Positions 1,533-37,860 are shown, counted from the first letter of the stretch. The stretch: DNA of 37,914 nt from Reclinomonas americana ATCC 50394 (GCA_048213135.1 PS015452.1:71108-109021); one strand, 5' to 3'. Program-made: numbers and translations. Notes: generated from the sequence alone by a model not told the origin.

Positions 1533-4259
1533 TCACTTTTCTGTGATGCGCATGATTGGGTGCTTTTCAATCGTTTGCACCTCTTGCATGGCCCTGTCGG
1601 ATACACACAAAAAGATGAGGAAGAGATGAGTGTGGTGGGCGGAGAAGACGTGCATACAGAATGGACAAAGGCAACGCAACTTGGCCACATTGAAGCGCAG
1701 CTCGTGGAATTTTTCGAGCGACACCTCAAACGTCTCAATGTCGCCGTTGCTGTGTTGACGGAGGTGAGAACGAAATCATGGATGCAAGCGGTGCACATTC
1801 ACACACCTCAGCGTAATCTTCATCAAAATGAGCGGCTTCATCACACGATACAGAGAGCTGGTGGTGATGGCCACGTCCACTCGCCACTCGACATTGACAA
1901 TTGTCGGCAGCGTCAACACGTTGGCCAGCGCCACATCCACCAGCGCCTCGGCACTGGAGAGAAGGAGTGAGATCGATGGCACAGCAGACGCTCCACTCTC
2001 GCTCTCGCTCACCTCCGTGCATGTGCTTGTGCGAGGAGATCGCGGGGACGTTGTGGCATGTTCAGTTGCTGCAACACCGTCGACAGCACCTCGGGCTTGA
2101 GCTTCAGTCGCACAGCAGCACGCAGAATTTGCCTGTAGCGACAGCGGTGAGATCACAGCGAAACAACCAGACAGCTGAATGCACGCACCACACGGCCGTG
2201 GCAATCAGTGGCCATGGTCCATCGTCGTCGGGAATGTGTGGAACAGCGGCTGACAGCTGTGCCTCCTTCAGCGAGGGGCGGCCGGCAGTGAATTCCTGCA
2301 CGCAGCGGTGTTGGAATAGAGACGAAAAAGCTCAAACAGACAAGAGAATGACTCTCTACTCGCTGACTGAGACACATGACCAACTCACAAGACATGCCTC
2401 TCTCTAGCAAGCTCTCGGCCTCTAACAGCGACGAAGAAGCAGATAAGTCGACTCTTCCTCGCTCTCACTCTCTCCCCTGAATCTGGAAGCATCCAGTACC
2501 ACGAGAGATTACACATGAATCGCCTCCGTCTCTAGCGTGAATCAAAGCGTCATGCACATCAGGCAGGACAGGAACCGACTACAAGACTGACAATCTCCTC
2601 GCTGAAACAAGAGGCATGCTACCAGTACCAGATCGATGACCCACAAAGACGTACACAAAACTGTCCCCTTGCCGAGTCTGCGACGTAAAACATGCATGAC
2701 AGGAGCCAACAAGAACAACCTCCTCTCTGAATGAGAGGAAGCACACAATAGGGCTGCTTATCTCCTCTTGCAGAATCAGGGACATGAAGCTCGCTGCCAC
2801 ATGTATGACTATCTTCTCCCTCAATCAGGAAGTATGCAGATTGATGGCAAGCAGGCGACAGGTGATTCGCGTCACGGTACAAAAGAGTGACAAAGGAGCA
2901 AGACAACATGCTGCAAGGAGTGACTGCAAGACTGGCGATCATTTCTCTGAATGAAAAAGTACGCAGTCACCACCAGAACGATTGAAGCAATGGCCCCAAA
3001 GCGTGACTACAAAGTACGCGACAACTCTTGCGGAATCAGTGACATGAAACTCGTTGCACGCATGCCACGGGTCGACCTTCGCGACAATCTCCTCTCAATC
3101 AGGAAATGGCAAGCAGGCAACACGTGATTCGTGTCACGGAACAGAAGAGTGACAAACAAGCATAACATGCTGCCGTCTCCACATGTATGACAAGGAGTGA
3201 CTGCAAGCTGACTATCTTCTCCCTCAATCAGGGAGCATGCAGATCAATGGCAAGCAGGCAACACGTGATTCGTGTCACGGAGCAGAAGAGTGACAAATAA
3301 GCAGACAACATGCTACCGTTTCCTCACTGCCTCATGCATGACAAGGAGTGACTGCAAGCTGACTATCTTCTCCCTCAGTCAAGAAGCATGCAGATCAATG
3401 GCAAGCAGGCAACACGTGATTCGTGTCGCGGAACAGAAAAGTGACAAAGGAGCAGACAACATGCTACCGTTTCCTCACTGCCTCATGCATGACAAGGAGT
3501 GACTGCAAGCTGACTATCTTCTCCCTCAGTCAAGAAGCATGCAGATTGATGGCAAGCAGGCAACACGAGATTCGTGTCACGGTACAGAAGAGTGACAAAG
3601 GAGCAGACAACATGCTGCCGTTTCCTCACTGCCACTTACATCACAAGGGCTGACTTCCTCGACTACACCAGTCTCTCTGAGTGACCTGTCCCCTCAATCA
3701 CCCGCGGAACAACAATGCAATCTCCCCTTATCCCCCCTTCCCCCCTTACCCCCTTCCCCCCGTCTCCTCCTTCTCCTCCCGCACCCACCTCCTTGGCCAC
3801 CCGCTTGCCCTCCTCATCATGCCACAAGGCCAACGACGCGCGTTCCCTCGCCTCCTCCGCCTCCGCATCCCCACTCGACGACGTCGCCAAGTACTTGACC
3901 GCCCGCGTCACCACTCGCCCAAGCAACGCCTCAGAGAACACACCACCAATCGCACAAAACGCCTTCACCTCTGACGGGGGGGAAAGACAGAGAGTGAAAA
4001 AAAGAGAGCGCGACATTTCCAACACACACACACGCGTATGCACACTCCACGCACACGCAGGTGTCTGCGCAACACAGCGCGCACAGCTGCAAGACAAGAG
4101 CATGCAAGCGAGAAAGAAAGAAAGAAAGAGAGAGGATTTCACACAACACTTCTTTGCTCACTCGTCGTATCATTTGCCTCTCGTTTTCATGCGGTTTACA
4201 TGGCAAAGAAGAGAAAGCTCACCGGAGGGTGTGCGAGGAAACAGCGTGACTGTGTCCAT
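1533..4259 (-). CDS. COMMD5: COMM domain-containing protein 5 (Commander/CCC complex); exons 4259-4223, 3970-3789, 2295-2189, 2132-2013, 1953-1807, 1749-1681, 1593-1533
   Basis: All exon phases match. The C-terminus LPTIVNVEWRVDVAITTSSLYRVMKPLILMKITLSNGDIETFEVSLEKFHELRFNVAK is a COMM domain with the COMMD5-type WRVDVAI(S/T)TS motif. Confidence 0.88.
2540..3650. repeat. 151-bp-period tandem repeat inside COMMD5 intron 2 (2296-3788); near-identical copies at ~3105-3650, decayed copies at ~2540-3100
   Basis: GACTATCTTCTCCCTCA recurs at 2807, 3210, 3361 and 3512 (151-bp spacing for the last three). ORFs at 3272 and 3423 are near-duplicates 151 bp apart. Confidence 0.9.
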
Positions 4260-4339
4260 GTCGCAAGCAAGTGATCGAACTGCGAATGAATTTTCCGCGC
4301 ACTTTTTGTGTTTTCTTTTGTGTGTCAGCAAGCGCGCAA
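4260..4339. promoter_or_regulatory. Putative bidirectional promoter between COMMD5 and the divergent + strand gene
   Basis: Only 80 bp separate the two inferred ATGs (4259 minus, 4340 plus). Contains AATTTTCCGCG at 4289-4299. Confidence 0.55.
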
Positions 4340-7300
4340 ATGATTAGTGGTGGCGCACAAGAGGCACTTGAGGAGCAAGTGCGCCAACGAGCAGCCATTG
4401 TGCGTCTCTCTCTCTCTCACTGTCTGCCTCCTGTGTCTCTCGCACTCTCTCACGTGCATGGGACATTACTGGCTCTCGCTCTTTGTTTGTGTGTTTGTGT
4501 GTGTGTTTAGGCGACACAGATGCGCACGGATGCAGCTGAGGCGCTGCGGTTGTCGCAGTTGCAGAGTGGGTTGTTGGACTCGCAGAGGAAGCTGAGAGCG
4601 GTGGAATCGCGATTGGATACAATGCAGGTAAAGTCGAGTGAGAGAGAGAGAGAGAGTGTGTTTCTCTCTCCTCTCTGTTCTCTTTCTCTCTCTCTTGTGC
4701 CTCTGTGTGTGCGTTCTCTCGTGATTGCCATGCATTCCACTCCGATATCTCGCACTCTGTATCGTTGTTTTCTGCATTGCTTCATGCTTTTCTGTGCGTG
4801 TGTCACAGTCACAGCGATCGCTCTCTCTGTCTTGCGCGTACTCGCACGCTGTTGTCATCGCATCGTTGTTTCGCACTCACTAACCCTCATTCTCGTTGTT
4901 TCCCTCGCTCACTCGTATGTCGCATCGTTGTTTGTGTCACTCATCACTCTCTCTCTCCTCGCACTCTCGTTCGCAAGTACACTCATCATTCATTCGCTCT
5001 CTCTCTCTCACTCTCTGTCATTCATCTCTCTTCTCTTTCTTCTCTCTCTCGCTCATTCTTTGCCTTTGCCCCCTGCAGACCTCCGACGACTCGGGCGCCG
5101 GTGCCGTTCCATCCACACAGCCACCGTTCCTGCGACCATCGACTGTCGCTGATTTGCCGTTGCGTGCCGCGGCATCTTGCATTTCACCGATCTTCTCCCC
5201 CCCTCTCTCTCCCTCCTCCGCACACTCGCACAAGCTCTCGCACAAAGTAACAGCCGCACATTCTCTTCCGATCCAGTCTTCTCTTCTCCTCTCTACCACT
5301 CTCACATTGGCCATGCAGTGCACCGGGCGCTCTCTCGGATCACCTACGCGAGATGGATAAGCGATTACGGCAGTCGGAGTTGCAGGCGCAGCTGGCGGCG
5401 CTTCAGCGAAAACTGGAGGAGCGACACTCGAGGTTTGGTTGTCGGATGTTTTTTTCTTTCTTTCTTCATCTGTGATGTGCATCTCTCACCCACTGATCGC
5501 AGGGGCGGTTCGACGCTGAGTCCCGGCTCGCTGCATCCGGTGGACTCGTTGCACTCACCGCCGGCGTCGCCACCGCAAAACGGTCATGCACCGCAGGCAG
5601 CGGCGGCGCCGTCACAGCCGCTGCCACCGCCCGTGCTGCCGGCGGCGCAGGAGAGCGTGCAGAGCATTGTGCGCAGCGACTTGGCGGAGCAGGTGGACCT
5701 GGCGACCATGACTCCGGAGCAGCGTGACATGCACTTGCAACGACAGCTCATGGTCCATCAACACGAACTGGCACTGGAGCACGAGCGACAGCGGAAACAG
5801 CTGCAGGCTGAGCAGGCCGACCGTGCCCGCAAGTTTGCCGTGGATCCCGTGCAGGAGCAGGCACTGGTATGTGTCGTCTTCGCCTGCAAGCAGCGGTACG
5901 ACCGACGACAGTGCTGATGCATGTTCACGCAGATGCAGCTTCTTGAGCGACGGCAGCAGTCGGAGCAGCAGCAGCTGGTGGACTACATCACAACGCGACA
6001 CCGTCGGCAGGTGAGAAAGAGAGAGGGAAGGAAACAAGCATGGCAGCACGTCTACCCCTTCTCACACTCTTGCGTCCCATAGATCCGTGAAGACGAGATG
6101 CGCCACGAGCTGCAGTCGCGTCAGATGGAGTTGCAGCAGCAGCTGCAGCACAAGGAGAGGGAGTTGGAGCGTGCACGCAGCAAGTATCGCCAGTCGGAGG
6201 ACCTGGTGATCAAGATTCCGTCGCCGCCCGCCGACGAGACGCCGCTCGTCAGTGTGGAAGTACGTGGTCGTCCTCTTGTCTACATTCTCATTCTCTCGAT
6301 GGTGCTTATGCGCGTGCGCGTGTGTGTGTGTCGTGCAGCTACCGGGACTCGGTGGACTCGAGTTGACGCGCGAGGAGTTGTTTGCGGTCATCCACGCACG
6401 ATTGCAACGCAACGGCACGCCAACGCCACGCGTCCTGCAGGCGGTGCAGGCGCGTCTGGGATTTGCCGCCACTCCGCACGCTGCATCTCCGGGTGCGCCG
6501 CCACCACGGCAAAGGTCGTCGGCTGCGCGTGGAGAAGTTGTGTGCACTGTTGTGTGGCTACTCTCTTGTCTCATTGTCACTCACCGATCGTCGCCACGCA
6601 GGAGGTGGAGGTGGAGTTGGATCTGAGCACCGACACTACTGCGTCGCCGGCACCACGAATCACGCAGCGAACGGACCTGTCGTTTAGCAGTTCACGGCGC
6701 TCGCGATCGCCAACACGTCACAATCGAAGTGGTGCGCACCGTACGCTTATCCTGCTTATCGTTGCCTGGGCTTACCTTCGCCTCATTGCTTACACACAGT
6801 ATCGTCTCTCTCGCTGCGCTCTGACTTTTCCGAGGCCGAAGAACGGGCCCGCGAGTTGCGAGAGCGTGTCACTGGAACTGGGTCGCGGAAGGGCCGCTCG
6901 CCAGCGCGACAGCGCATTATGTCGAACACCGTGTCGGTCCGTCCTCTCGGGAATCGTATTGTGCGCTCGCTCATTGCCTCACATCGGTTTCGCGCACCGC
7001 ACAGAGTGAAGCCAAACGCCGGTCACCATCGCCAACAAATGGCGCACAGCGTGCAGTCAGCCCTGTGCCGTTTGAGCGCGAAGTGACCGCAGTGACTGCG
7101 GTGAGTGGCAACCTCCCGCAGTCACACTCTGCGCATCGACTCACTCGCGTCACTCCAGGCCTACTCACCCGTTCCGCACCTCGTGCGCACCGGTAATCGG
7201 GAGACTCTCGACTGGGTCACCAACCTGTGCTCCGGTCGTCACTCGCCCACTGGCCAGGAGGCTACACCGTCCTTTGTTGCGTCTTCAACGCAGTGACACG

Positions 7301-7720: not shown

Positions 7721-9558
7721 TCACATCTTGACGGCCGTGGCACCGAAACCACCGGGTGCCGGTCGGTGATTCGCATCGTAGGGTGGTGGTGCTGTGCCAA
7801 ACGGTTGGTTGGAATTGGGTCCGTAGGCACCGTACGCAGGCGCTGCGGGAGGCGCACTCGGCGCCGACGGCTGGAAGCGTGCCATTTCCACATCGCGCTT
7901 GTTGTTGTTGCTGTTGTTGTCCAGCGGGTGCGAACCCGAGTCGTACGCAGGCGACACAACCTCCTCTTCCCTCCGTTTGCGCGCTTTTTCGCTTTCGCCA
8001 CTGCGAGTGCGAAGACAAGGATGAGCCAACTTGCTCCTGTTTCCGCACACACACACTCTCTAACGCACCAGCAGCACGAGATCCAATTGAGAATCAGTGC
8101 AAGCACCATGGGACCGAGGCCAGCGACCTCAATCCACAACGATTTCTTGGCGTCGAACGTTCCCTTGTCGGTGACGGGCGTGGCGCCGTTTGGAAGCTGT
8201 ACATGCGCAAGCGCGAAGCGTGAGTCACCCAACAGGTCAAGATCGTCATGACAGAATGACTGACCAGCGAGTTGACAAACGACGGCACATTGTCGTTGAT
8301 TTGACCCTTGCCCCACACCGCCAGGGCTCCCCACAGCGCCGCTGCATGGCCATGACAATAGACAGAAGGTGAGCATCGTAGATGAAGAGCACACGAGTGC
8401 AGTTGCGTGGAACACACACCAGTGATGAGCGCGTCCAAGAACGACAACATGACGAGCAGCTGCAGCGCAGGGTCAGTATCGATCGGTCATGTGTTGGACA
8501 TGTATCCGCGAACGCAACGCAACATTCACGAGGCACACGACACACTTGTTGCGGCAGTAGTCGGTGAAGATGCCCAAGAGGATGACCAGCGCACAGGCAC
8601 CGGACGAGGCCGCCGCGGCAATCGCCACGTAGCCGACGGCTGTCACACGCCATGTGTCAGCAACAACCAACGTAAGAGTGTGTCAATGGAGAGACCTTGT
8701 GCGACTTTCTTCACCAGGTCGCAGTTGCTGCCAATGTTCTCCTGAATCTTCTTGACAGCTGCGACGACAGCAAGCTGTGAGCACGCAAAACACACAATTT
8801 ACGGCGGACGACTGCCGTGACACGCAACTGCAAATATCAGAGAGCGGTCCATCGTATGCCACCTCAATGTATGTGGTGGTCGGCCCGTTGTTGATGGTCT
8901 CGTTGCGGAAGACTGCCGACAACGAATCGCGTGTCAGATTGCTGTCAGACGAGAAACCACTCGCAAATATAGGCGCACCATTCCACAAGGCCTTCAGCGG
9001 ATCAAGTTGCACATTGAACGTCACCGTCTCAACCACCGTCTGCCCATTGCTTGTTCCCGACGACCGATACGCTGCCAGCAAGAGAGAGTCAACACAAGCG
9101 AATCGGACACGTTTTCGATATCTCTTGTCCGTGCACCGCTCTCTCGCAAGCTCACGTGATGGGCACACAGACGCACACACTGCGTTACACACACACGCGA
9201 CAGAGACTGCGAGGCAGACAAAGGAGATGCGCACAATCGCTGTTTCTCACGAATCATCATTCTCGCTCCCTCTCTCAACTCGTGTCAACCAACCGTACAC
9301 ACTCACTGATCCACTCGCCCAGCTGTCACTCTCACTCTCTCTCCATCGCTTGTCCACTTATTAGCAATCACAACTGTCTCTCAACATAGTCTCACTCTCT
9401 CTCTCTCTTTCTCTCTTTTCACACTCACTTTGCGGTGGATCGACGCCGAACCAGAAACGTGAGAGAATCGCTGCGATGAAGAGCGCACACGAGGCCGCGC
9501 ACAAGAGCGCAGTCACAATGTCGATTGTGCGACGACGAACGCATGGTGTACGACACAT
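7721..9558 (-). CDS. Four-transmembrane claudin/amastin/Sur7-like membrane protein, paralog A
   Basis: TM1 (DIVTALLCAASCALFIAAILSRFWFG) is followed by a large loop with a Cys pair, then three more hydrophobic helices, a CC juxtamembrane motif and a Pro/Tyr-rich tail with PPPY. Eight exons splice in phase. Family is inferred from topology only. Confidence 0.7.
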
Positions 9559-9957: not shown

Positions 9958-11616
9958 TCATGGATTGTAGGCCGGCGGTGGTGGCAGATAGGTCTGCTGC
10001 TGGTACTGCTGCTGTGGTGGTGGTTGTGGTGGGCAACAACAACAGTAAGTGACCGCCCGATCGCGACTTCTTCGTCGACGACGGGCTCGATATCGATGGC
10101 ATCATCGTGACGCACCGACTGCACGTGCGCCGCGCCATTGTATCCGTTCACCGACACCGCATGCTGGTGCTTCTCCAGACGACTACCCGTACCCGTCGCT
10201 ATCGTCGACGAGGTCGTCTTGACCATGCGGCGTCGTTCCTCGGCCGTCGCGGCAGCATGTCGGCGCCTGTGCGCACCAAAGAGTTTTTCCGATCACTCAC
10301 ATGCATCGTTTGCACTCATCAACACACACAAGGCAGTACGTAACCAGCAGCAGCCGACAAAGTCGAGAATGAGTGTGGCCAGCATGCAGGCGGCCGCCAC
10401 CAGCACTAACCAGTACGCTCGCCGGGCGTCAAAGTCGCCGCGAGCGTCGGTCGGCTGCGACAACGGTGGCAACTGCACGGTGCGCGCGACAGTGTCAGAA
10501 ACGGTGCAGGGCGTGGGCGACAGTTGCCTTGTACTCACCGTCGAGTTGATAAAGTTGGCCGTGTTGTCGTTCAGCTGTCGTCCACCGTACGCAGCTGCCG
10601 CACCCCACACCACGGCCTGCGAGACATCTTTGTCAGCACCACTCTTTCTCTAGATCTCTACCATCACCCCTCTGCAGCACTCACCGTGGATCCAATGCAC
10701 AGGAAGGCCGTCAGCACAGTGAGACTGTTGAACAGCGTGCACAACGGGGTGCCGCAGTCCTTCGTCGCCGCGCCAATGATCAGCACAACGACCGAGATGC
10801 CGGCCAGCACGGTGCCGGCAATGGCGAGAACAGCGGTCGCTGCATCACACACACATGTGAGAGGAGCAGCCCCTGTTGAGGAGAGTGTGTGTGGGGCAAC
10901 GCACCAACTCCGAGATCCCGCACTCGGTTGCATTCATTGTCGCCGCCGACCAGGTCTTTGATTTGCGACACCGCTGCCCCCGTGCCCCTCCCACTGTCAG
11001 AATCAAACACAGAAGAGTGCGGTGGGGAAGGAAGCGCAACGCAACAGCACATGTTGTTGACGGCGCTGTCGGGACCACAAACCCAAGCGAGTCAGTGCTC
11101 CTCACACATGCAAGCATGTCGGCGGCAATACTTACCCGTCGTAGGCGATCAGTTGTGTTGTCGTCACTTGCACTCCGGCTATCGTTGTCCGACGAGCCAC
11201 TGTGCAGAGAAAAAACACACAAATCAGCAGCCCCACCCCACTGTTGCAACTGTGGCGTGCACTCGACCATTCCAGCGCGTCTTCAGCGGCTGTGCCGAGA
11301 TGTCAATCTGTGTGCAAGCACAAGTTGGTTCGAATTCGGTTTCTTCACAGCTTGTAGCAATCGTAACAATGTAATCGTGGACCGTCGCCGGTCCACCGTT
11401 GACGTTGATGGCTGCGAAGAGAGAACGACAAGTCAACCAACATGCAATGGGAGGAATAGCGGATTGGAGGAATTCGAGATCGGAGAATCTTTTTCCTCCC
11501 TCTCGCGCTCAACTTTGCGTGTCGCCGAACCAGTCGCCGATCGCCAGTGCAGCTATCATCAGCGTGCACGCCGCCAGGGCGAAGAAGGTCGCCACCGTGT
11601 ACAGTCGAGACCGCAT
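9958..11616 (-). CDS. Four-transmembrane claudin/amastin/Sur7-like membrane protein, paralog B
   Basis: Same architecture as paralog A, with shared motifs (WFG, PLKxxWN, AYDG, WGAxAxxGxxQxNDN, GxFDA, CC) and several shared intron positions. Predicted end is QQYQQQTYLPPPPAYNP*; the last intron is less certain. Confidence 0.68.
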
Positions 11617-12088: not shown

Positions 12089-14139
12089 TCACGCCTTTTC
12101 TCCTGGTGTGCGCGAGCGAGAGCCCTTCGGGCGATTGCGGGAGCGACTGTTTGATCGTCGGTCCGCCTGCAAAACAGCAAAAACCAAATGAGCCGACACG
12201 CGGACTTACACGCACACACCGGCACAACAAGCGGAAAGAGGACGCAACAGCCGATGCGCGTGCTCTGTCCTGCAGTTCCTGTCGAGTGAGCGGGTGTACC
12301 GTCTCGTCTCCGCTGTCGTCACCCTCCAAGTCGTCGCTGTGGTCACAAAGAAAAAGACAAGCGGTGAGACACATGGAGCGCGGTGTTGCGTGTCAGGTGC
12401 CACTTTGCGTGTTACACGTACCCAGCCGCTGGTGGCTTGATGTCGAGCACCGTGGCACCAAATGGTGTCGATGGTCCCATGCCGAACACGGCGGCACCGA
12501 TAATCGACTGTGATGTGCTGCCAAACTCGGCACTCAGCTCCGGGCCCTGAATGGCCGCGTACAGCTGCAGCAACTCGTTGGCGCGCTGCTCAATAATACC
12601 TACACGCACAAGGGGTTAGTGTTTCGCTGCACACAGTCCTCATCACTTTCTCTTCCAGCTCTCCACTCACCGAGGTATTGCATCATGTTCGAGTCCGTGA
12701 CACCCGAGTCGCCAAGCACCTCTGCCACCGGGCCGAGCTCGCAGCCAATCTCGCGGAAGACGTGCTCGATACCGCCACGCAGACGATCAAGCACCTGCAC
12801 CTGCTCGTCGTGCTTCGACTCGTACTCGGTCGACTTCTCCTCGGCCGCGTTGAGCTTGCCCTCCAGCTCGGCAATGATGCGCTCCTGTTGTGTGTTGGAC
12901 TCGGCGCCCTGGCCCTGAATCTGTGAAATCTCGCCGCGCATCTCGCCAATCTGTGCGGTGGACGGGGATGAGCATCCCAACCACAGCAATCAACAACAAA
13001 ACGTGGGGAGCGAGAGTGACAGTACCTGCTCCTCCAGCTTCTCGATCTCGTTGTTGAGGTCGTTGACGTAGTTGAAGAGCGAGAAGTTTTGCTCCTCGGC
13101 CTGAATAAACTTCTCCACAATGAGGTGCAAGTCGTCGAGATCGGTGGCGTCCTTGATCTTGCGGATGGCCTCCTCGTACTCGTCGACCTTTTCGCGCGTG
13201 ACCTCGTGTGATGCCATTTCCACGGCCTCGTTCCATTGCGCTGAAATGCAACAATGAAGGAAATGTGAGGGAAAGCGGGGGACGGGTGGTGCCGGGGGTG
13301 AGATGCACACCTCGTTGTCCGTGTGCGCCATCCTCCTCTGCCTTGCCGTCGCCAGCCGCCGCGGCGCTCTCCAGCATGCGCAAGTGGGCCTTGCGTTTCC
13401 GATCCTTCTCCATCTCCGTGTCCAGTTCCTAACCATACACACACAGAGTGTGAGCGGGCGCTGCTGCGTTCTGCAAGGCAAGCCAAGCACACTACAGACG
13501 CACCTGGAAGAGTCGATCGAGTTCCTGATTCTCGCGTTCGTATGCCTGCTTCAAGGCCACCAACTCGTTCTGGCACTGATCCCTCTCCTCGTAAGCCACG
13601 TTGCTGCGCTCGATAATCTCCGCCATCTCCTTCTTCTTCTCGTGCAAGTCGCGCTCCAGCTTCTTGTAGATTTCGTCAAACACTTGTCGTTCCGTGCGCA
13701 GGTTATCAATCTCCTCACGCAGTTCGCGATTGCATGCTAGTGCCTCGTTGAACTTGATCAAGCCCTGCATTCACCCCACAATGAGAACCACGACAACAAA
13801 TCGGAGATGGAGAGAGTAAAGTACCTTGTCCAATCGGTTCTCCAGCAACTTGATCTGTCGTTGCACGGCCTCATCGCTCTCCGACGCCTGGTGCACACCG
13901 CCACGCTTGCCCTTCATCTCCTTGATGCGCGCCGCCATGATCTGTGAAGCACAAGAGAGAGAAAGGTGAAGGGTTAGGCGCGCGACTGCATCGCTCACCG
14001 GCTGACCATTCACAAACCTTGATCTGTCGATCCAGATCCTCCAGACGCCGCCGATCCTCGCCGTACTTGCGCGACAACACCTGGAACTGTTGCGATAGCT
14101 GACTGCCGCGCTTGGTGATCTCCACAGTCTCGCGCATGG

Positions 14140-14185
<46 letters not shown>

Positions 14186-14685
14186 ACACGAGCGAAGTGA
14201 GCGATTGACAAGCGTTGGAGGAGTGCGAGAGAGACTGTGATTGACATGCTTGCAGCTGACGGTCAAGCGTTGCAAGAGCGAGGAAGAGAGAGACAGTTGC
14301 AGAGTGGCATGAAAACGCCGACAACAAACCTTGTTCCGCGTCAACGTGGCCAGCTCCTCCCGCAACCCATCGTTCTCCTTCTTCAGCTTCTCAATCGTCA
14401 CACTACACAAGGCACGTGAGCAGGAAGTCACACACAGAGAAAGAGAAACAAGGGTGTTGTTGCTCACCGTTGCTTACGAATCGTGTTCTGTGAGTCCTCA
14501 GAGAGCGACTTGCGGTTGGTCGCCGCCATGCGCGCCTTGCGAGAGATCTCATTGAGACGAGCCTCCTCTGCAAAAAACAAAGAGAGAAGTGAGTGAGACT
14601 CTTGACTGTGTGTGAGAGACAGAGAGAGAGAGCGTGTGTGCAGACCTTCACCACCACCGCTGCCACCAGTGTTCGCCTTGGACAT
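12089..14685 (-). CDS. ODA1: Outer dynein arm docking complex subunit (Chlamydomonas ODA1/DC2; CCDC114/CCDC63 family), 12 coding exons
   Basis: Family motifs IKLLENRLDK, FNEALACNRELREEIDNLRTER, FIQAEEQNFSLFNYVNDLNNEIEKLEEQ and GVTDSNMMQYLGIIEQRANELL, all joined by phase-consistent GT-AG introns. Confidence 0.92.
14143..14182. repeat. (GA)n/(CT)n microsatellite forming the polypyrimidine tract of an ODA1 intron
   Basis: About 20 GA units abut the minus-strand CAG acceptor. Similar CT/GT microsatellites fill many introns (e.g. 26936-26958). Confidence 0.9.
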
Positions 14686-21550: not shown

Positions 21551-22134
21551 TCACTTGCCATTGGCGCCTGTCACCTCCTCCGCATATCGATCCATGGCTT
21601 GTGCCAAAGTAATATCCTTGTCTGAGACCCCGTCTACGTCGTGCGTACGCAGTGTCACGTCCACCCGGTTGTAGCAGTTGAACCACTCTGCGCGAAGCAC
21701 GGGTGAGGAGAGAAGAGAAGCAGAGACTAAACCCGAGATGACACGCAACCCGGATGATGATCCATCTCCTCGGCCTTGTCAGCAACCTGCGCAACAAGAC
21801 TGTCGGCATCTATGCTCTCACTCACTCTCTCTCCCTCCGTCTCTCTCTCTCTCTCTCAGTGTCTGTGCGCGCGCAACTCTGCTCATGAAGCGCCACGCCT
21901 GCTTAAAGTCCACAAAGCGATAGGTGCGACGAATGGCATCGACGCCCTCTGCTTGTGCATCCACCCAGCCCGGCACCTGCAGGTCAGTCACACACGCGAG
22001 TGTGTGAGTGAGTGAGAGTGTGTGAGGGAATCTCTGTCCCTACACACACACACACAGACCGCTGTCATGGCTCGGAGTCTTGCATCACCGCCCAGACGCG
22101 CTGCGTAGACCGCCATGGTTGCTCGATAGGCCAT
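21551..22134 (-). CDS. PCBD1: Pterin-4-alpha-carbinolamine dehydratase; exons 22134 (or 22116)-22060, 21976-21878, 21786-21750, 21687-21551
   Basis: The spliced product contains [61 protein letters not shown], the PCD signature with the catalytic HHP and THD motifs. Confidence 0.95.
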
Positions 22135-22203
22135 TCAACTGTGAATGCACACACACACAAGGACGATCGGAGAGCGGGACGACATGCATGACAACTAATG
22201 TAT

Positions 22204-24795: not shown

Positions 24796-25190
24796 GCCCC
24801 GTTATCGCACAATCAGAAGTCGGCACGCGCGTGTATGTGCGACCGACTGGGTGGAGTGTGTGGGGCAAGGGGAAGAGAGAGCAGTCACCTTTCCCGTCTC
24901 TGTCGGTCGTTTCGTTGGACGCGCGGCAGGCGGGACACACGCGTCTTTCTGTCGACGTTGTTAATCACACTCTCACTTGACAACGTTGAGAAACAACAAG
25001 TATTACATTCTTTTTCTTTCCACCCCACCAGGATTTAACAAAGACATATACCGAGTAGGTGATCACCCAAGCACACACACACTCTCCGTAATTTTTCAAA
25101 ATGCAAACAGACACACACAGATACAACAACAAAAGGGAAAAGATAACAACACGGGCGGGCACGCGCGCGCCTCCCGCGTCAACTCCATGG

Positions 25191-28100
25191 CTATGAGAGC
25201 ATGGCCACGAGCTTGGAGCGGTCGGCGTCTGACAGCGCGGCGGCTGCGTCCGAGAACTCGGACGGGATTGCCGACTGCAGCGCGCGCACCAGCGACTGCG
25301 TGGCGGCCTTGACGTCGGTCTTGGGCTCCTTCAGCAGCTTCACTGCCATTGGCAGCACTTGCCGCGTCAGTACGCCCGGTCGCTGGCGAGCCACCTCGTC
25401 GATCGAGTCTGCAACGTGCCTCCATCATCAGTCACTGTGCGTTTCCCCTCGCGAGCGCCACACAAAGATTGCTCACCTGCCAGCTTTTGCACCAGCTGCG
25501 CCTTGACCTTCATGTTGCCGTACATGATCTCGTGCACCACATGCGGCGCAATCACCGACGCTTGTGCGGCCGTGAACACGTGGTCAAACACCTCGGTGGC
25601 CTGCGAGCGCACCGCCGGTGTCGACGACGCCATGTTGCTGACGAGTGCTGGCGTGAGGCGATTGAGCACAGGCTCAACCGCGTCGCCAAACGCCGGCACA
25701 ATGCGCTCCAGCGACTGCAGCGCCGCCGCGAGGACTTTCGGATTGGGATCCGACAGACGCGACAACATCGGGTCAAAGGTGGTCACCAGTCGATCCGCCG
25801 TGCGAATGTACTCGGCCTCACTGACCAGCAGCTGCTCCAGTTGTGAGATACCCGACATGCGATCTCGCCAGTCTGCGCGACACCCGTCAGGAAAAAAAAA
25901 ACTAATCACAAAAGAGCGCACAAACACGCACCACTCGACGAAATCGCCGTGTTGATCTCCGGTAGTGCCTCAAAGGCAGACGGCTCGGGTCCTACCGAAG
26001 AGCGACCGGCACGCGATCCGGAGCGAGTGGCTCGCGAAATGGAGCGCACACGAGTGGACGGTGTACCGATTTCGACTGCCACAGCAGTGAGAAACACCAT
26101 GTGGAGAGAGAGAGGGGGAGAGAGGGAGAGGGAGAATAGAGACGTTACCATCCACGGGTGTTCCGTTCGTCTGTCGTGACGTCGGCGTCTCGCGAAGCGG
26201 GCTGCTACGCGGACTCGACTGTGTCTTGCCACTGCCGACACGCTCGCGTGCACTCGGTCGTCGAGGTGGTGGCGGTCCCTGTGACATCGGAGTGAGTGCA
26301 AGTCATCGGGAGGCGGATGCGTTGCGGGGGAGACTGAACACACCGCAATGCCCGACGCCGATCCGGCGGCAGCAGACGGCTGCACGTCGCCTCCACGTAG
26401 CGCAGACTCGCGGAACTTTTCAATCGCATCGGCCTTGAGGTACTGACGCAGGAATTTCTCAAACGCGCTCATGTCGCGATCAAATCTGCAAGCACGAATC
26501 AGCACAAAATCATGGAGACTTGCTTAATCAATCACTGTGTACCCTTGCAGTGCATAGGCTGCGGCCTGCTTGGCGGCATTGCGCGTCTCGGCGGAAGCGT
26601 CGCCCAACATGCGCGACACACCCGACACGAAGCGCTCCGCCTCACGTGATCCGTTCAGTTTGGATCCCTGCGACACATCACGCACGGTTTTTTTGAGTCA
26701 AGCGAACTCTTCTCATCCATCTCACACACACCACGACTCACCATGATCATCGACCAGTGTGCTATCGCGGCGGCGACCTTGGAACGCACGACCGCTGATT
26801 TGTGTTGTGAGTGCGCAAGGAGCGCAGCCAGCGCTGCACCACGGCTACAGTGTTCCACACACGCCAACATTGTCTTTTCCACCTCTTCGATGATGAATTT
26901 GGCGTCGACGGCCTTCTTGAACAGAGCCAACAGCTGAGAGAGAGAGAGAGAGAGAGAGATAGAGCAGAAAATGATCCGTGCGTGTCAGCAACATCGTCCT
27001 CGCAGTCCTCACAGGCGCGCAGAAAGTGAGCGCAACGATATTGTCGAGTTCCACGTCGAGCACCCGTCCCAAATGCTCCACCATGAACGAGAGCGTGCGC
27101 AGCGCATTCTTCGACACGGCCGACCGACCGTTGCCGACTGATTTGAGCAGCACGAGCACCACAGAGTGACTGTAGAAGGAGAAAAAGAATTCGGCAAGCA
27201 ACGATGAGATCACGAGAGCAAGAGAGTGGTGAGAGCGCGAGTGGCACGCAACGCCAGTGGGGAAACAAGCTCCGAATGGTGAACGACGAGGCGGCGCATG
27301 ATATTTAGCGACTCCATTTCCTTGACCCAATCCTCCTGACTGCGTTCCTGGCTCAGCGTGTCGAGTGCAAGCTGTATCACACGCGAAGTGATGAGCAGAA
27401 GGAAAACTGAGAAGACTTGTCGCGATCGACGAACTCGCAAGGCACGATCGGGATTCGGCACCGGCACCACATCCTCCGGCGCCAACTCCTCCACCGGCTT
27501 GGCGCCGAGTTCTGCCACGGCTCGACGATTGACGGCCTTGTTGGCTGCGCAGAGACACAGCAGTGAGCGTACTGTGCGGGTACAGGTGAGAGGCGACTCG
27601 AGCATGACGCACGACTTCTGTAGCTCTCGTTGCGTGCACGTTCGCCACCAAGCGAGTCGCTGTCGCCAGCGTCCATGTCGAACATGGACGACGGTGACAC
27701 GGGCGTGGCCTGATGGCGACTGAGACGACTCTTTGCCGCCGGTGACACCGTGTTGACAGCTACGTGTGTGTTAACAAGTCAGTGACACAAGACTACTAAA
27801 ACCGTGCTCCACTTCAACCGCACGCACATGAACCCTCGCTCTCGGTCGAGTACGACACGGAATCGCTGCCCTTGACGTCAGAGACGCGTGAACCTGCGAG
27901 CACACAACGATGAGCGACCACGGCGACGACATAATAAATATCAGAGTGCAGCGCAGACTACAAACCAGTGCGCCCGTGTCGGCGAACAGGGTGTGGCGAG
28001 TCTTCAATCTCATCCGGCGTATTCCTGCCGCACACACACACACATGTGAGACACACAATACGCAAGAGCCTCAGAAAATCAAGCATGCACAAACCTCGGC

Positions 28101-31100
28101 TTGTCGTCGTCGCCCGGCAGGTGCACAGGTGAGTAGTACTGAGCCGCGTGACTGGCTGGCATCGGTCGAATGGGCGCTTCGTCGGTGGTACGTCCAGAGA
28201 GCGGACTGATTACTTCCGGTCGCGCATCTGCTGGCCGCACACATCGTGTCGTGAGTGGACGGCGCTCACAAAAAATGGAGGTGCTTGACGCAGCACAACG
28301 CAACGGTTCGGTGACACGGACGAGGAGCTGGAGTACGTGTTGGCACGTTGTCGTCCACCGGGCGAGCGGCCGCCACGGTGCATTCGAAGAAGACTCAACT
28401 TGTCCGAGTCCACACCTACGCCGGCAAGTGAGCAGAAAAGAAGAGGACCTCAGCCTCGAGTCATGACATCCAAACCATTGTCGCGGTCCACGGTGGACGG
28501 TGTCGCTGCCGTCACGGACACTGCAGGCATCGAGTCGTGGGAGCTGCTGCTTTTGGGGAGAACGAGAGAGAGAGAGAGAGAGGAGGTCAGAGACGCTGAT
28601 GCAGACCGTGGCGAAAAAACATGACTTACCCAGTAGGATCATCGATGCGAAGCTCGGCCACATTGAACGCCGCTGCGTCAGCGCATACGTGAGAAACACA
28701 TCGTCATCACAAACTAGAGAAATGAGACGCACAAGATAATCTTCTCGAGCGCAGTCCCGACAATTCGTCGTACTCGTGTCGCGGTGGCTGTGAAAGAGAC
28801 ACACAAAATCAATGGTGAGCCGCGCTGTGCTCGACATGCGCACACTGCCACACCACAAACCGTGCGTTGCATCTGCTGCGTCTGCTGCTGTGGCACAGCC
28901 GAGTCCGACATGTGCTTTTGGTGCATGTGATTCCCCGACAGCATCGCGGCGCCAACATGCACACTCTGTTGTCCTCCATTCGGTCGCAGTTGATCAATCG
29001 GCAACCACTGCTTGATCTTGTCTTGATCGCCAGCATACTCGGGCCCTGTGCACATTGGTCAACCACTGCGACTCGCGACAAAAGACTTGGCGCAGTGACG
29101 AAACGAGCAAACACGGAGCCAGCATCCGAAAAGTTCGTCGACACTTGCGACACGGTCTCGCGTCCCTTGACAGGCGTACCGAAAGCAATTTGCCTGCACC
29201 CCATTCGAGTCAGTCGCACGACTCAATCGAGACAGACGAGTGCCGCGAGGTCAGACGCAACACAGGCGGGCGGTCCTCGTCAGACGATGAGTTGGACGAT
29301 TTCGGATCGCTGGTCAACTTGCTGAACGCCGACTGGTGACGCGCAGGCTGTGCACCAGCGGCCTGCTGTCCCTGCGTGCCATTTGCACCGCGGCGTACCG
29401 GATCCTTCTTGATCGGCGCCGAGTTGTAGCGCTGATTACGATGTCCGCCCTGCGCAGACAAAGAGATGAATACGAGAGACCACACGCCGCCCACTCGTCA
29501 ATCTTTTGCCAGCGACGCAACATCTTGGCCAGGTGGGGGTGCTGTGAATGCCGACTCCTCCGAATCCACCGACGCCTGATCAGTTGGGAACTCACCACCG
29601 CGGGCCTGGTACGCCGGCAGGTAATCCATGGCGCTGCGTGAACCCCGCAGCGGGTGCTGACGAGCAGCCACGGGGATTTCGTCCTCGTTGGCGTACTCGG
29701 TGGATGGCGATGAACCGCCCGTCAACTCGTCCTCCGACTCCTCCATGCGCGCACTGAGACCGCGACCGGTGCCACTCAACTGCCGCAGCAGCTTAAACTT
29801 GGAGTTCTGTGCGTGCCTTCCTCCGCGCACGCGCTCCAAGGGATCGGTCGACACGGTGCGTGCCGACAAATCATCATCGGTTTGGTTCGAGCCATCACCG
29901 CCCACACGCAGTGCCGCGTTTGGCAGCGGCGTCGCAAACGGTAATCTGCCCGAATCACTGCCGGCCGAGGTGAGCCGTGGTGGTCGCCCATCGCTGCGCG
30001 GTGGCATTCCCATGACCGAGGGAACCGACGGTGCCACTGACGAAGAGCCATTGGCACCGCGGCCAGAGATACGCGCCGAGCCAAACTGGTGACTCTGATT
30101 CACCCGCGTGTCCTCTGCAACACAGACGAGTGAGAACCACGGTGACAGGAGGGGGGGGGGGGGGGGAAAGGAGCGGTGCGTGCTTGCTGACAGTCGGAGG
30201 GACAGACGAACCGACTCGCTTGCGACGCGGAGCGCTGAGATCGGCCGGCAAACTGCGCGTGCTCTTGGGCGTCGGTGGTGCATCGGCGGCGGCCAGTGCG
30301 GGGTGATCGAGCGTCCCATCGCGCATGACCACGGGCAGATGCGGCTTGGAGAACCGCTCCTGCAGCAGTTCGTAGGTCTCGCGGTCGCGCAGCGTCATGC
30401 TGGTCAACAGCGGATCCAGACGATGCCCGATAATGTTCTTGATGACGGCAAACGCCTCCAGCGCCACGAACTTCACCTGCGCGTTGCACACAGAGCATTG
30501 AGTCCCGATTCCTCCTCACACATGCATCTGAATTGTGCCGATCTCACCTTGTTCTTGGTGTCCTTTAGCGCCACGGTCAACCGACTGACAATCGCGGGAA
30601 AATCAAACTCCACGCGAGATCGGTAACTCAAAAGCAAAACAATGATAAAGTTGATCATCTCCTCCTTCACGTACTTGGACGTCGACGAGTCCAAGTACGG
30701 CAGCAGCTTGTTCAACAGCAGCACCGGACCCACGGCCTCGGCGAGCCGGATAAAGAATTGTGTGGTGCTCTGTCGTGTGGGCGTCTTCGGGTCCTCCCAT
30801 TTCTGGAGCGTGGTGAAACAGGGTTGTGTGAGTGGCACGTTACGCACCCTTATCACGACGCGTGCAACCTCACCTTGACGAGTTTGGGCAGGATCACGTT
30901 GAGGTACGGCTTCATTTCGCCGCGTGTGCGCTCCACCAGCACCGTGAGGAACTGCACAGCCAGACTGCAGATCTGGTAGTTGCTGTCGCCCAGCAGCGGC
31001 AGCACCATGGTCTCCAGCAAGTCAAAAATGTGTGGAATCACCACATCGTGTTGCGGAGCATCCTCGAACGCGCGAATCAACTGTGTCACAGTGCAAAGCA

Positions 31101-33152
31101 AAGAGTGAGCACAGCGTGCATTTTTTGGAAAAAGGAAAACACCGAGGAACGACCGGCGGCCACTCACCGCCTTGGCCGCAGTGAGGCGATCACGCCAGTT
31201 GGCGCTCTGGCCCTGCACACAGATGCTGTCGGGGAGGAAGCCGAAACGCATCGGCTCCTCTGGCGTACTGAACATGGAAATCGCCACACCCGACGGCGCA
31301 GCCGTGTGCCCGCTCGACGACGACGACGTCGGCGAGTAGGCCGACGACGGAGATGCCGGACCTCGTGCCTGGTAGTGATTGGAAGACGAGGAGCCACTGA
31401 CGGACTGCCGCAGTGCGGGCGCGGAGCCGGCAGGAGGTGCCGGTGGACCGCTGATCGAACTCTGTTTTCATGCGCGGAAAGGAGTGAGGCACTGCGTAAA
31501 ACACACACGTGCGCGCGCACACAGCATCCACAAACCCGCGGCGCCGCCTTGAGCATCACTTCGACATCGTTCAGCAACGCGACAGCCTAATGCGCTCAAC
31601 GAGATGAGCAACACAAATCGCACACCACTGCCTTTCTCTCTCCCTCTCTCATCGCATGACTGTACCTTGCGGGCGGCAGCCTGCACTGTGCCGACAGCGT
31701 CACCCTCCAACGGCGAGAGAGCATTCCGCAGAGCACCAATGTCGATCCGCTCGACCGGTAATCTCGGCGGTGCCATGCCCGACGATCCCGATGTGGGCGA
31801 GGCGCTCGACACCACCACTGCGGCGGCCATGGCGCGGCCGGAGACAGAGGCGCGTGGTCGCATTGGACCCGCCTCCTCCGCCGCCGACACCACAGTGGCC
31901 AGCCACACTCCCAGCGCCTCGGCGCCGTGCAAGCGACCGGCAATGGTCGACGAGCGGAGACAAATGCGAAACACACGATCCATCACAGTCTGCGGCTTCT
32001 CCGCGCGATGCATGTAGACAGCCAGCGTCTCCACCGCAGCAGCACGCACAGCCAGTCGATCGTGAGCCAAGGCGCGCACACACGAGTCGAGAGTCCGCAT
32101 CAAGGCCGACTCCGCACTCTGCTCCCGTAATCTCCAGTGCTCCATAATCAGTCGCATGGTCGTCAGCGTCTTGTGCGTCACCATCCACGAGTCACCGCCG
32201 GCGGCGCCCGGACGCAGTGCCGCATCCAGCGCATCCACTAACCTGCTGCACTCGCCGTTCGCCGACAAGCACGTCACCAGCACCTGTCGATCACTCAACA
32301 GCGTCTCCAGTCCCTCCAATCGCCCCATCACACTGCCACTCTCTAGTTGCTCCAGCAGCGCCAGGTGCGTCGGCAAATCACTAATCCCGGCCGCCGCCGA
32401 CGCCGACAGCGCCGTGGTCAGTGAGAGATTGCGCGGAGAGGATGCGGTGGACGACGAAGACGACGATTGCGCGCCACTAGAACCCTTGCGCTGATGTGCC
32501 GGCGACGGTGCTGCCACTGAGTGTGTGACAGAGAGTGTGAGATATCGAAACGGGTGCAGTTGCGCGCCATGGCACGACCCCCGAGACACACACGCTTTCT
32601 CTCTGTCTGTCGATACACACACACATGTGCGCGCGTGCGGGCGTACACAGACACACATATATACAACACGCGAGACACACACACACACAGAGGTGGGAGA
32701 CACAGAGAGTGATGATGGCCATGACACGCACCGCCACTCTTGCTCTTGCCCCCAGACGGCACCCGCGAGCGCGGCAGTGGTGGTTTCGCCGAGGGTAGCC
32801 GCTTACTCGGCACCGCCTCCTCTTCCTCCTCATCATCCTCCTCAAACGACGAGTACTCCTCCTCATCATCGTCCTCCTCCTCATCGTCATCGTCAACAGC
32901 CACTGCTCTCTTCACCGCTGGCATGGGCTTGCGCACGACCACCGCTTCTTCTTCGTCTTCCTCGTCGTCTTCGTCTTCGTCTTCTTCTTCTTCTTCTTCA
33001 TCGTCGTCGTCGTCTTCCTCTTCCTCATCGTCGTCTTCATCGTCGTCGTCGTCCTCATCATCGTCGTCATCGTCGTCGTCCTCATCGCGGCGCACAGGCG
33101 GCGGTTGAGGCACAGACATGCGCCGCAGAGTGGCGCGCGTCAGTGGATCCAT
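25191..33152 (-). CDS. TOGARAM1: TOG-array ciliary microtubule regulator (crescerin/TOGARAM/CHE-12 family), more than 25 exons
   Basis: Two N-terminal and two C-terminal HEAT/TOG blocks flank a long disordered linker. Motifs include NWRDRLTA, LLGDSNYQI, EDWVKEMESLNIMRRL, GRSAVSKNA and DWRDRMSGI...RLSDPNPKV. The linker introns I traced splice in phase. Confidence 0.85.
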
Positions 33153-36176: not shown

Positions 36177-36207
<31 letters not shown>

Positions 36208-36408
36208 CGGTTTCCTATCTGCCAATACGGGATTGCACTTACACAGTAGCCACGCACAATGATCGCGGCGATAAAGCAAGGCGGTCTACCGTGAACACCT
36301 CTGGCACTTCCTGGGACACCAGCGCATCACACCACACCTGATCGATATTGCAACCGAACGTCACCAGTATCCGCGCGTTGCGAGTCGTAAATCGTATGTA
36401 ATAAAGCA

Positions 36409-37860
36409 TCATCTGGGGCTCTCTTCACCACTAGAGCCGTGGCCAGCGGCGAGTTCCTCGCGCCTCTTACGCACTCGTTTCTTGACAACGGAGGCTGGCG
36501 TCTCGGCAGCGGTGGCGGAGGCCGAACTGGCCCTGCGTGGTGCCGACTCGTCGCCGGCGCCGGACGACGAGCGGCGGTGATGGCGCGCGGACGACGCACC
36601 CATCACAGCCTTGGTGGAAGACGTTGCTGCAGCAGCAGCAGCAGCAGCCACGGCATCGCGGTCAGCCGATCGGGATCGCCGCTTGGTTGGCGGTGTGGAC
36701 GCAGCGATTGCGTCGGTGGCGGCTGCTGCAGGCGGTCTGTTGACGCGTTGCGAGAGACGCAATTTCTCACGACCAGTCTCCGACAAGGTCGGCGGCATGT
36801 CTGCAGGCAGCGGTGGGTATGCTACAAGCAAAGCACACACGCACCAGGTGAGAGTGGACGCAACGAAGTGAACTGACTCGTTGGAAGGCCATGGCAGCCT
36901 CCAGTGGCGACGGATGACGCATGGACGAGGCGTAGTACTGGTGCACGTTCTCCGCTCCAAACATCGTGGACGATGATGACGACGATGGTGGCGGAGGCAT
37001 GTGGCGCGCCATCTGCACGACCTGCGAGGCCTTGCGTCTGGCCAACTCGACCTCCTTCTCGAGGCGACGCTTGTCGATCTCCAGACGGTCAGCTGTCGTC
37101 GGTAAAGCAGCAAGGTAGCAGTCAAGGGGGAACGCACATCGACGACAATAACAACAATGCAAGGGAGGGCAATGTGAAAACAAAAAAAGGATATCAAACT
37201 CGCGTCGCTCGGCCACCAACTGCTCCTGCTTCTTCACCAACGAGGTCACCTGTTGAGCACTCTCCTCGGCGGCACGCTCGGCCGCACGCACTGACGACTC
37301 GGCACGGAACAGGCGCTGCGCTAATGCATGAGAAATTGACGTGCAACTGGGGGAAGAGTGTGGTGCATTCGCACGCAACGGCATCCTTCTCCTGCAGCTC
37401 TTGCACCAAACGTGCCACCTCCTCCTTCACACGCCTCAAATCCGCCTCCAGCTGTCGGCTCACTTGTCGACTGCGCTCGGCCTCCTGCCGCGCCGACGAC
37501 ACCTGCACTCGCGCAGTTTCTTCCACCTCCTGTCGCTCCTCGGTTCTGCGCACCGCGAGAAGAACAAAGGTTGGCACGCAGAGTGGAAGCTCTGTGCTGC
37601 ACCACAATGAAACGCAACATGCGCCGTTGCTGTGAACGCGACTCCTCCGACAGTCGCTCGACCTCGGCCTCCAGTCGCCAGATCTGTTCCTTGGCATCTT
37701 GCAGTTCGCGTCGCCGATTCGCTTGCTCTCGTTCATGATCGAGTGCGAGCTCCTGCTGATGCGCACCCCGCGACTCGGTCTCCTGCCGCAACTGCAGCTC
37801 CAGGCGCTCCACCTGCGCACGCAAGTCCTCCCGCTGCTGCGTGGTTTGCAACAGTTTTTG
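36409..37860 (-). CDS. 3' part of a long coiled-coil protein with a disordered tail (5' end outside the window)
   Basis: Heptad exons (REDLRAQVERLELQLRQE, LEADLRRVKEEVARLVQELQEKD, DRLEIDKRRLEKEVELARRK) join in phase and end GEESPR*. Confidence 0.7.
37102..37194 (-). other. U12-type AT-AC intron in the terminal coiled-coil gene
   Basis: 5' end ATATCCTTT, branch point CCCTTGAC 20 nt from a 3' TAC. The phase-1 join gives RREFATTADRLEIDK. Confidence 0.8.

Follow-up and report, generated by a model that had tools for sequence, protein, structure and literature searches.

The stretch of DNA analyzed here, referred to below as the window, comprises 37,914 bases from Reclinomonas americana ATCC 50394 (GCA_048213135.1 PS015452.1:71108-109021). 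It has a G+C content of about 57%, a single run of N at 17506-18381, and eukaryotic genes with short introns packed densely along its length. Genes were named through Pfam, using the stop-to-stop frames of the window. The minus strand carries a COMM-domain gene (~1600-2300), ODAD1, an outer-dynein-arm docking gene (12167-14685), a pterin-4a-carbinolamine dehydratase gene of three exons (21554-22039), a divergent cation-efflux (ZnT-like) gene (~22900-24800), and a long TOGARAM-like gene with TOG/HEAT domains (25191-33152). A gene that ends in TPR lies on the plus strand (18831-21458). Because the ODAD1 gene is present, the host is taken to be flagellated. The subject of this analysis is an unusual class of 5' splice site found throughout these genes, in which the intron starts with GTTGCG and most often with the heptamer GTTGCGT. 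Judged from the sequence of this one 38-kilobase (kb) window and its ~100 introns, the GTTGCGT class is real, discrete, and abundant, and its recognition by the cell is probably out of the ordinary.

The initial annotation of this DNA listed 25 GTTGCG donors, and all 25 positions do read GTTGCG on the strand given. Nineteen of them could be supported as donors, five by protein homology and 14 by gene models. The site at 11045 on the minus strand remained ambiguous, and the plus-strand sites at 7276, 15241, 15315, 18608, and 18799 were not upheld. The list had also omitted at least two likely members, at 389 on the plus strand and 8523 on the minus strand.

The five homology-supported donors are at 21877, 21749, 27252, 27036, and 12248 on the minus strand, and in each case removal of the intron restores a conserved protein. 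In the dehydratase gene, three frames match the Pfam family Pterin_4a at profile positions 12-50, 35-57, and 56-90. The frames are separated by a GTTGCGC intron of 91 nucleotides (nt) at 21787-21877 and a GTTGCGT intron of 62 nt at 21688-21749. The last residue of exon 1, whose codon ends at 21878, aligns to residue 52 of the solved dehydratase chain 3hxa_A; exon 2, with 37 nt and 12 residues, spans exactly residues 53-64; and the first residue of exon 3, encoded by the split codon G|AG, corresponds to residue 65. Since the exon residues fit 52/53-64/65, both introns are placed with their start at the G of GTTGCG. By our reading of the sequence, a donor moved 3 nt downstream at 21749 would yield an in-frame TAG. 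The intron at 21787-21877 is purine-rich with a (GA)n tract, compared to a pyrimidine-rich norm, and its acceptor is followed by GTTGCT, a near repeat of its donor.

Relatives of the TOG gene were collected by an exhaustive protein search, which found 311, the best at ~30% identity. Their ungapped matches are co-linear over the third TOG domain. Junctions were refined by scoring each GT (or GC)..AG pair near two neighboring matches against the homologue, and the GT-only refinement covered 98 homologues of at least 500 residues. The GTTGCGT intron of 83 nt in the third TOG/HEAT domain (27170-27252, minus strand) was the best GT junction in all 23 homologues with a usable pair, with a mean margin of 28.7; when GC donors were allowed, it was best in six of nine. 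A GTTGCGC intron of 103 nt in the same domain (26934-27036, minus strand) was the best GT junction in four homologues, with a mean margin of 10.2, and in two of three with GC allowed. This second intron was also chosen by the gene finder without a donor model.

In ODAD1, the orthologue P0001, which has 564 residues and is 79% identical to the query region, can be followed co-linearly through ten exon blocks. Refinement against it gave nine internal donors, GTGAGC, GTTTGT, GTTTGT, GTACTT, GTGCGT, GTGTGC, GTACTG, GTGAGT, and GTACGT, and G stands at exon position -1 in all nine junctions. The last coding intron, GTTGCGT and 82 nt long, occupies 12167-12248 on the minus strand. Its removal gives a spliced tail that scores 78-82 against P0001, compared to 54 for read-through, and of the four in-frame options with the best scores, only 12248 is a GT donor. 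P0001 was the only close orthologue found. Word-index orthologue searches with a TOG-gene exon and a lipase/TPR-gene exon gave no match, three ZnT-gene frames searched against Protein Data Bank (PDB) sequences returned nothing of use, the frame of the short dehydratase exon had no match there, and Pfam at E ≤10 gave no match to the ZnT exons. The organism or its near relatives seem to be scarcely sampled in the protein collection.

The window was also modeled with a gene finder based on exon-chain dynamic programming, which scores codon usage and demands only GT..AG, with its models trained on the 38 kb. A first pass with no signal model returned GTTGCG as the top donor hexamer (6 of 45). With an acceptor profile and no donor model, GTTGCG accounted for 13 of 109 donors compared to 4 for the runner-up hexamer, and 11 of the 25 claimed sites were recovered. 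Addition of a first-order donor model gave 126 introns, 21 of them GTTGCG, and recovered 17 of the 25. Models that overlapped a higher-scoring model on the opposite strand were then removed, which left 10 gene models with 108 introns; 90 of these introns were 45-140 nt long and 14 of the 90 were GTTGCG. Expected counts were calculated from a position-independent model built on the same donors. GTTGCG was strongly enriched over this model. Without the donor model it began 8 of 65 short introns where 0.66 were expected (p = 3e-7), with the donor model it began 14 of 90 where 1.18 were expected (p = 1.5e-11), and the heptamer GTTGCGT was found 12 times with the donor model compared to 0.39 expected. 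The share of roughly a quarter of the introns given in the initial annotation was too high. The class makes up about 16-20% of introns, at ~16% when the 14 of 90 are counted and ~20% when the homology- or frame-supported sites missed by the finder are added.

In a phase test, the best upstream frame and the best frame past the best acceptor were chosen independently. Phases agreed at 16 of the 25 claimed sites compared to 34.6% of 4,777 other GT sites (p = 0.0016), and where both flanks were coding-like they agreed at 10 of 11 claimed sites compared to 314 of 855. The presence of a good acceptor downstream discriminated poorly (28% of GTTGCG sites, 10.9% of all GT sites).

The motif itself is overrepresented. 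GTTGCG occurs 61 times in the window against 41.5 expected, a count reached in 0 of 100 shuffles, and for GTTGCGT a third-order Markov model predicts 9.5 occurrences where 30 are found. T follows at +7 in 20 of the 25 listed sites, which thus read on to GCGT, and G stands at -1 in one of the 25. The initial annotation had described the conserved +5 G as moved to +6, and this description holds: G and T are found at +6/+7 instead of +5/+6, with T at +7 in 23 of 29 claimed or predicted donors compared to 7 of 32 non-donor copies. The motif proper is the heptamer GTTGCGT rather than the hexamer. Relative to the gene models, GTTGCGT is found 23 times in sense, 4 times in antisense, and 3 times between models (p = 3e-4), while GTTGCT, GTTGCC, GTTGCA, GTCGCG, and GTGGCG have sense-to-antisense ratios near 1:1.

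Two other hexamers are also unevenly distributed. GTTTGT, a common donor with T at +3, is found 20 times in sense, 0 times in antisense, and 6 times between models, and its donors at 14329 and 14017 were verified by homology in ODAD1; T at +3 is common among the donors of this genome generally. GTGAGT is found more often in antisense (25) than in sense (14), which is likely because its reverse complement, ACTCAC, is a branch-like motif of sense-strand introns.

These counts bear on the possibility that GTTGCG is merely a frequent word and its introns are products of gene modeling. Such an artifact would account for the five of 25 claimed sites that lack support and for the 32 of 61 copies that are neither claimed nor predicted donors. 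It does not account for the five homology-supported junctions, two of them nucleotide-exact in a conserved enzyme, nor for the 23:4 strand bias, the contrast in T at +7, and the result of the phase test, and we hold it to be extremely improbable.

Fourteen of the 25 listed sites are supported solely by frame continuity, coding potential, and splice-signal models. All but one of these read GTTGCGT. Two are in the coiled-coil gene on the minus strand. The 73-nt intron at 37546-37618 in this gene was chosen by the finder without a donor model and is phase-consistent, with coding scores of 7.9/5.9, and the 64-nt intron at 37316-37379 in the same gene was chosen in the first pass with no signal model and is also phase-consistent. 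The 128-nt intron at 36737-36864, also on the minus strand, is phase-consistent and was chosen with the donor model; no homology was found for it. Three further sites fall in the TOG-gene linker, where they could not be checked by homology because the only relatives found were TOG-domain relatives of ~30% identity. At 29450-29521 (72 nt), the intron was chosen by the finder without a donor model and is phase-consistent, with an acceptor score of 12.8. The 68-nt intron at 29194-29261 was chosen solely with the donor model and its phase-consistent acceptor ranked third. The 74-nt intron at 28231-28304 is weakly supported, as it appeared only in the donor-model run and failed the simple phase test.

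Two class introns lie in the ZnT-like gene on the minus strand. The 75-nt intron at 23907-23981 is phase-consistent and was missed in both finder runs; a Pfam Cation_efflux match (profile 63-99) reaches to 12 nt before its donor. The 60-nt intron at 23403-23462 has phase 0 on both sides and opens a 43-codon exon that ends AAG|GTTCTT and is followed by a 67-nt intron. The finder picked a 251-nt intron at this donor. On the plus strand, the one GTTGCGA site of the group starts a 68-nt intron at 20377-20444, which was found in the first pass, is phase-consistent, and contains CTGAC branch motifs. The 65-nt intron at 19584-19648 is phase-consistent as well. Its donor retains GHSLG, which we take to be a hydrolase nucleophile motif, where the exon ends, while a rival donor at 19541 would remove it. 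Another plus-strand intron of 65 nt, at 16487-16551, lies in a low-complexity protein; it was chosen by the finder without a donor model and failed the simple phase test. The 160-nt intron at 5159-5318 (plus) was chosen in both finder runs and is phase-consistent. The 70-nt intron at 8759-8828 (minus) was chosen without a donor model and dropped with one. Lastly, an 87-nt intron past the COMM domain, at 1594-1680 (minus), is phase-consistent with an uncertain acceptor, for which the finder took 165 nt; a weak COMM-domain match (profile 38-63 of 64, E = 0.12) stops exactly at donor 1680.

The two members that had not been listed also start with GTTGCGT. The intron at 389-461 (plus, 73 nt) was found in the first pass without a signal model and in all later runs, and the one at 8460-8523 (minus, 64 nt) was found in the donor-model run only. 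At the ambiguous claimed donor GTTGCGTTGCG (11040-11045, minus), introns of 52, 58, or 206 nt are possible depending on the acceptor. The donor motif stands here in tandem, 5 nt apart (GTTGCGTTGCG), as it does at 8518-8523 on the same strand, and switching between the copies would shift the frame.

The remaining claimed donors, all on the plus strand, found no support. The site at 7276-7281 has no coding signal, is phase-inconsistent, and was chosen in no run. The pair 15241/15315 (15241-15320) would need a 4-nt exon and was likewise chosen in no run. The best start codon is at 18831, and the sites 18608 and 18799 (18608-18804) fall either upstream of it or across it; coding signal is absent upstream of 18831, and an intron at 18799 would delete that start codon. 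These two could be introns of the 5' untranslated region.

The anatomy of the class was compared by setting 21 class members against 76 other short introns. All 21 start with GTTGCG and end with CAG. Median length (73 nt in the class, 71.5 nt in the others) and G+C content (0.55 and 0.53) are similar, and the 3' signals are of the ordinary kind: 19 of 21 class members and 59 of 76 others end in GCAG or ACAG, and a branch-like CTVAY motif is found in the last 45 nt of 15 of 21 and 54 of 76, at a median distance from the 3' end of 16 nt and 19 nt, respectively. By its 3' half, the class is assigned to the U2-type (major) introns. The 5' end sets it apart. Among the 76 other donors, 48 carry G at -1, 45 carry G at +5, and 40 carry T at +6, and G at -1 is found in none of 14 class members (p = 6e-6). 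Without the donor model, the numbers are 0 of 8 in the class and 34 of 57 in the others (p = 0.0016). On these predicted junctions, the use of the heptamer as a donor, the non-independence of its positions, its strand specificity, and the ordinary 3' signals of its introns are demonstrated here. Pairing between the 5' end of the intron and its own body was also considered and gave -6.78 kcal/mol compared to -7.24 for the control (p = 0.40). Pairing of a CGCAG acceptor with the donor was rejected as undistinctive, since that acceptor is found in 7 of 21 class members and 17 of 76 others.

Another possible origin of the class is a single burst of intron gain by introner-like elements, of which only the splice-critical 5' end has been retained. 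Introner elements resemble the class in that many introns share terminal sequence and the exon context is irrelevant, and insertion elements need no exonic AG|G, which would fit the absent exon consensus. In the class, however, the similarity ends after the first seven letters. Local alignment of intron interiors gave mean scores of 5.59 for pairs inside the class, 5.68 for pairs across classes, and 5.47 for pairs of other introns; because the interiors are no more alike than other pairs, the class introns are not copies of an element, and their lengths, branch motifs, and acceptors are those of the other introns. Keeping exactly seven letters would, moreover, still require a specific reader. 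A relic of this kind is therefore very unlikely in our judgment.

The window also contains introns of the minor (U12) type. Two frames of the ZnT-like gene each extend to position 63 of the Cation_efflux profile, and no GT-AG intron connects them. Removal of a textbook 83-nt U12-type AT-AC intron at 24099-24181 (minus) joins these frames as ...EHFTFGFERFEVLGKF... (TFGFERFEVLG) in frame. This intron starts with ATATCCTT, ends in AC, and has the branch site TCCTTGAC 16 nt before its end. A copy of GTTGCG at 24108 sits within it and misled the gene finder. A second ATATCCTT intron start lies at 37194 (minus) in the coiled-coil gene, with CCCTTGAC downstream. An AC end at 37102 (93 nt) and an AG end at 37093 (102 nt) are both in frame, and this intron supplants an implausible exon and the GTTGTTA donor 37155 of the finder model. 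Because AT-AC introns with ATATCCTT are present, the organism has a canonical minor spliceosome, and the GTTGCGT class is not among its substrates. Two minor-type introns among ~100 would be an unusually high share.

U12-type 5' splice sites are read by base pairing inside the intron only. The GTTGCGT class is like them in having a sharp motif of seven to eight letters that is wholly intronic and has no exon consensus. It was rejected as a U12-type class itself: none of its members starts with RTATCCTT, TCCTTRA is found in the last 40 nt of 0 of 21 and TCCTTRAY likewise in none, and the ordinary CTVAY branch motif is shared with the other introns. The window holds three ATATCCTT sites, none of them at a class member, and true ATATCCTT...TCCTTGAC...AC introns coexist with the class.

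Duplexes with U1 were predicted with ViennaRNA, using the canonical 11-mer U1 5' end given in PMC4856993, from which that of the host may differ. Test sites with CAG|GT gave duplexes of -8.6 to -13.3 kcal/mol. In 19 of the 21 class members, the duplex was -2.0 kcal/mol or weaker, most being near 0. The register that is one longer appeared in the minimum-energy duplex of only two of the 21, so that, with a canonical U1 assumed, the noncanonical register is not clearly more stable than the canonical one for the class. When GUUGCGU was given an exonic CAG, the minimum-energy duplex did take the long register, at -5.9 kcal/mol. Donors with and without the extra T were also counted. GTGCGT was found 7 times and GTTGCGT 12 times, while for the other donors the counts without and with the inserted T were 5 and 0 (GTGAGT), 4 and 1 (GTACGT), 3 and 0 (GTAAGT), 6 and 2 (GTGTGT), and 6 and 1 (GTTTGT). 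The extra T is thus specific to the GCGT context and is not a general tolerance.

These results bear on whether the ordinary U1 and U6 suffice, through a bulge or an asymmetric loop in their pairing, so that no factor peculiar to the lineage would be required. The T would then be looped out, or a 3-by-2 loop formed, and G6/T7 would be paired to U1 C4/A3. The initial annotation had pointed to bulged U1 registers as a minority class in humans, and this is confirmed for human cells in work by Roca and Krainer (2009), Roca et al. (2012), and Tan et al. (2016, PMC4856993), with a +3 (or +2) bulge, an asymmetric loop 1 at +3/+4, and a shifted register; the validated noncanonical registers cover 1.5% of sites. 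Those human sites are like the class in having an extra nucleotide after GT, before a G-T that pairs with U1 C4-A3, and in lacking +5 G. The conservation of +6 G and +7 T fits such pairing, as does the long register taken when an exonic CAG is supplied. The real sites, however, have no exonic CAG, and they show the weak energies and the 2 of 21 long registers given above. T3, G4, and C5 are fixed although this pairing would leave them unpaired or in wobble pairs, and GTGAGT, GTAAGT, and GTACGT hardly occur with an inserted T (0, 0, and 1 times, compared to 5, 3, and 4 without it). The human registers are also heterogeneous and usually have exon-side pairing at their ~1.5% of sites, whereas here one heptamer accounts for 16-20%. 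It appears rather unlikely that looped pairing to the ordinary small nuclear RNAs (snRNAs) is enough. The initial annotation had offered a variant U1/U6 snRNA or routine bulged-register recognition; the duplex energies and the narrow context of the extra T speak indirectly against the latter, with an ordinary U1, as a sufficient explanation.

There is a suggestive sign of a wider use of the one-longer register beyond GTTGCGT. Among donors without +5 G, GTNNNGT was found in 9 of 31 compared to a background of 7.1%. Four minus-strand donors without +5 G, GTACTGT at 13025, GTACAGT at 31665, GTAACGT at 26148, and GTTTCGT at 29104, have G-T at +6/+7, and the one at 13025 was verified by the ODAD1 orthologue.

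A further explanation is a dedicated snRNA, either a variant U1 or another small RNA, with a 5' end complementary to GUUGCGU and working beside the ordinary U1. It would account for all seven positions together and for the near-zero fit to canonical U1, and a sharp heptamer without exon consensus has the same design as the U12-type sites, of which the two ATATCCTT introns are examples in this window. A protein reader is equally compatible with the data, and no organism is known in which a second U1 handles a fifth of the major-type introns. We regard a dedicated snRNA as a doubtful candidate. An Rfam scan of the window returned no family at gathering score, and no U1 or U6 gene was found in the window, where Rfam at E ≤1 gave five sub-threshold matches of microRNA- or small nucleolar RNA (snoRNA)-like kind only. 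If a dedicated RNA did serve about a fifth of introns, the major spliceosome would have a second recognition system, beside U1 and beside the minor spliceosome; this idea is tentative and rather unlikely.

The reading that we favor, with moderate confidence, is that GTTGCGT is a genuine and discrete U2-type 5' splice-site class that is used in a register one nucleotide longer and is, in addition, recognized by an extra reader of the heptamer. Cleavage is placed ahead of the first G of GTTGCGT. Other introns are marked by the exon-end G and a loose GTNNGT, and the class by fixed intron positions +3 to +7 with no exon consensus. G and T at +6/+7 would replace the usual +5/+6 contacts to U1 and U6. 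We infer the extra reader because pairing to a canonical U1 is far too weak and because T3, G4, and C5 are fixed as well. Either a protein or the end of a variant snRNA could fill this role, together with the longer register or in place of it.

Part of this division between exon and intron is familiar from a two-class model of 5' splice sites, with a U5-loop-1 type (AG//GU) and a U6-ACAGA type (//GURAG), as set out in PMC11732430 and PMC9803359. The class proposed here is like the second type as described there, in that introns strong on the intron side lack AG at the exon end, and vice versa (G at -1 in 0 of 14 compared to 48 of 76). It differs from the model in that the intron-side class is GUUGCGU and not GURAG and has no match to the ACAGA box in the usual register.

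Several points weigh against the favored reading. All junctions are known from sequence alone, and only five have evidence beyond our own models; 14 of the 19 supported sites rest on the gene models of this analysis. The finder that produced those models made errors: it skipped the 37-nt dehydratase exon, it missed 21749 and 23981, it chose the 251-nt intron at 23462, and it took a false donor at 24108. Even among the homology-supported junctions, a GC donor 3 nt downstream of 27252 was best in three of nine homologues, a near tie, and in-frame GC donors 3 nt downstream are also near ties at 27036 and 12248. The duplex energies presume a canonical U1 5' end and leave out pseudouridine and proteins, and ordinary donors in this window, such as GTACTT and GTGTGC, also match U1 poorly. 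The excess of GTNNNGT comes from a donor model that could favor GTNNNGT. Finally, copies of GTTGCG that are not donors also rarely follow G (3 of 32). Since G at -1 is rare at these copies too, the class is best described as lacking an exon consensus and not as avoiding G.

Some other features of the window were observed along the way. The TOG-gene model starts with about 100 residues that are nearly all Asp/Glu (32758-33152, minus), and the ZnT-like gene has a long His/Asp-rich run past its C-terminal domain (22878-23211, minus). The transmembrane metal site of the ZnT-like protein seems to be divergent, with HVLFQ where H...D is usual. Two of the sub-threshold Rfam matches, to mir-598 at 22211-22320 on the plus strand (38.3 bits compared to a gathering score of 69) and to the C/D snoRNA sR53 at 32819-32873 on the minus strand (33.8 compared to 49), are probably due to chance, as both are within low-complexity coding sequence.

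A literature search on the heptamer and hexamer as an intron or splice donor found no description; its matches were mostly primers, and an earlier description is possible. For annotation, the class has a practical consequence. Roughly one intron in five of this genome will be mis-annotated by gene finders whose donor model treats positions as independent, and our own models mis-annotated class introns until a dependency-aware donor model was added. Few RNA-RNA contacts in eukaryotes are as conserved as the one by which the U1 5' end recognizes 5' splice sites. The commonest intron start in this window is an exact heptamer with nearly no fit to U1 and no help from the exon. This genome would serve as a natural experiment on how a cleavage site is fixed when U1 pairing is minimal, and it would show whether longer registers, a 1.5% minority in humans, can become a main mode of recognition.

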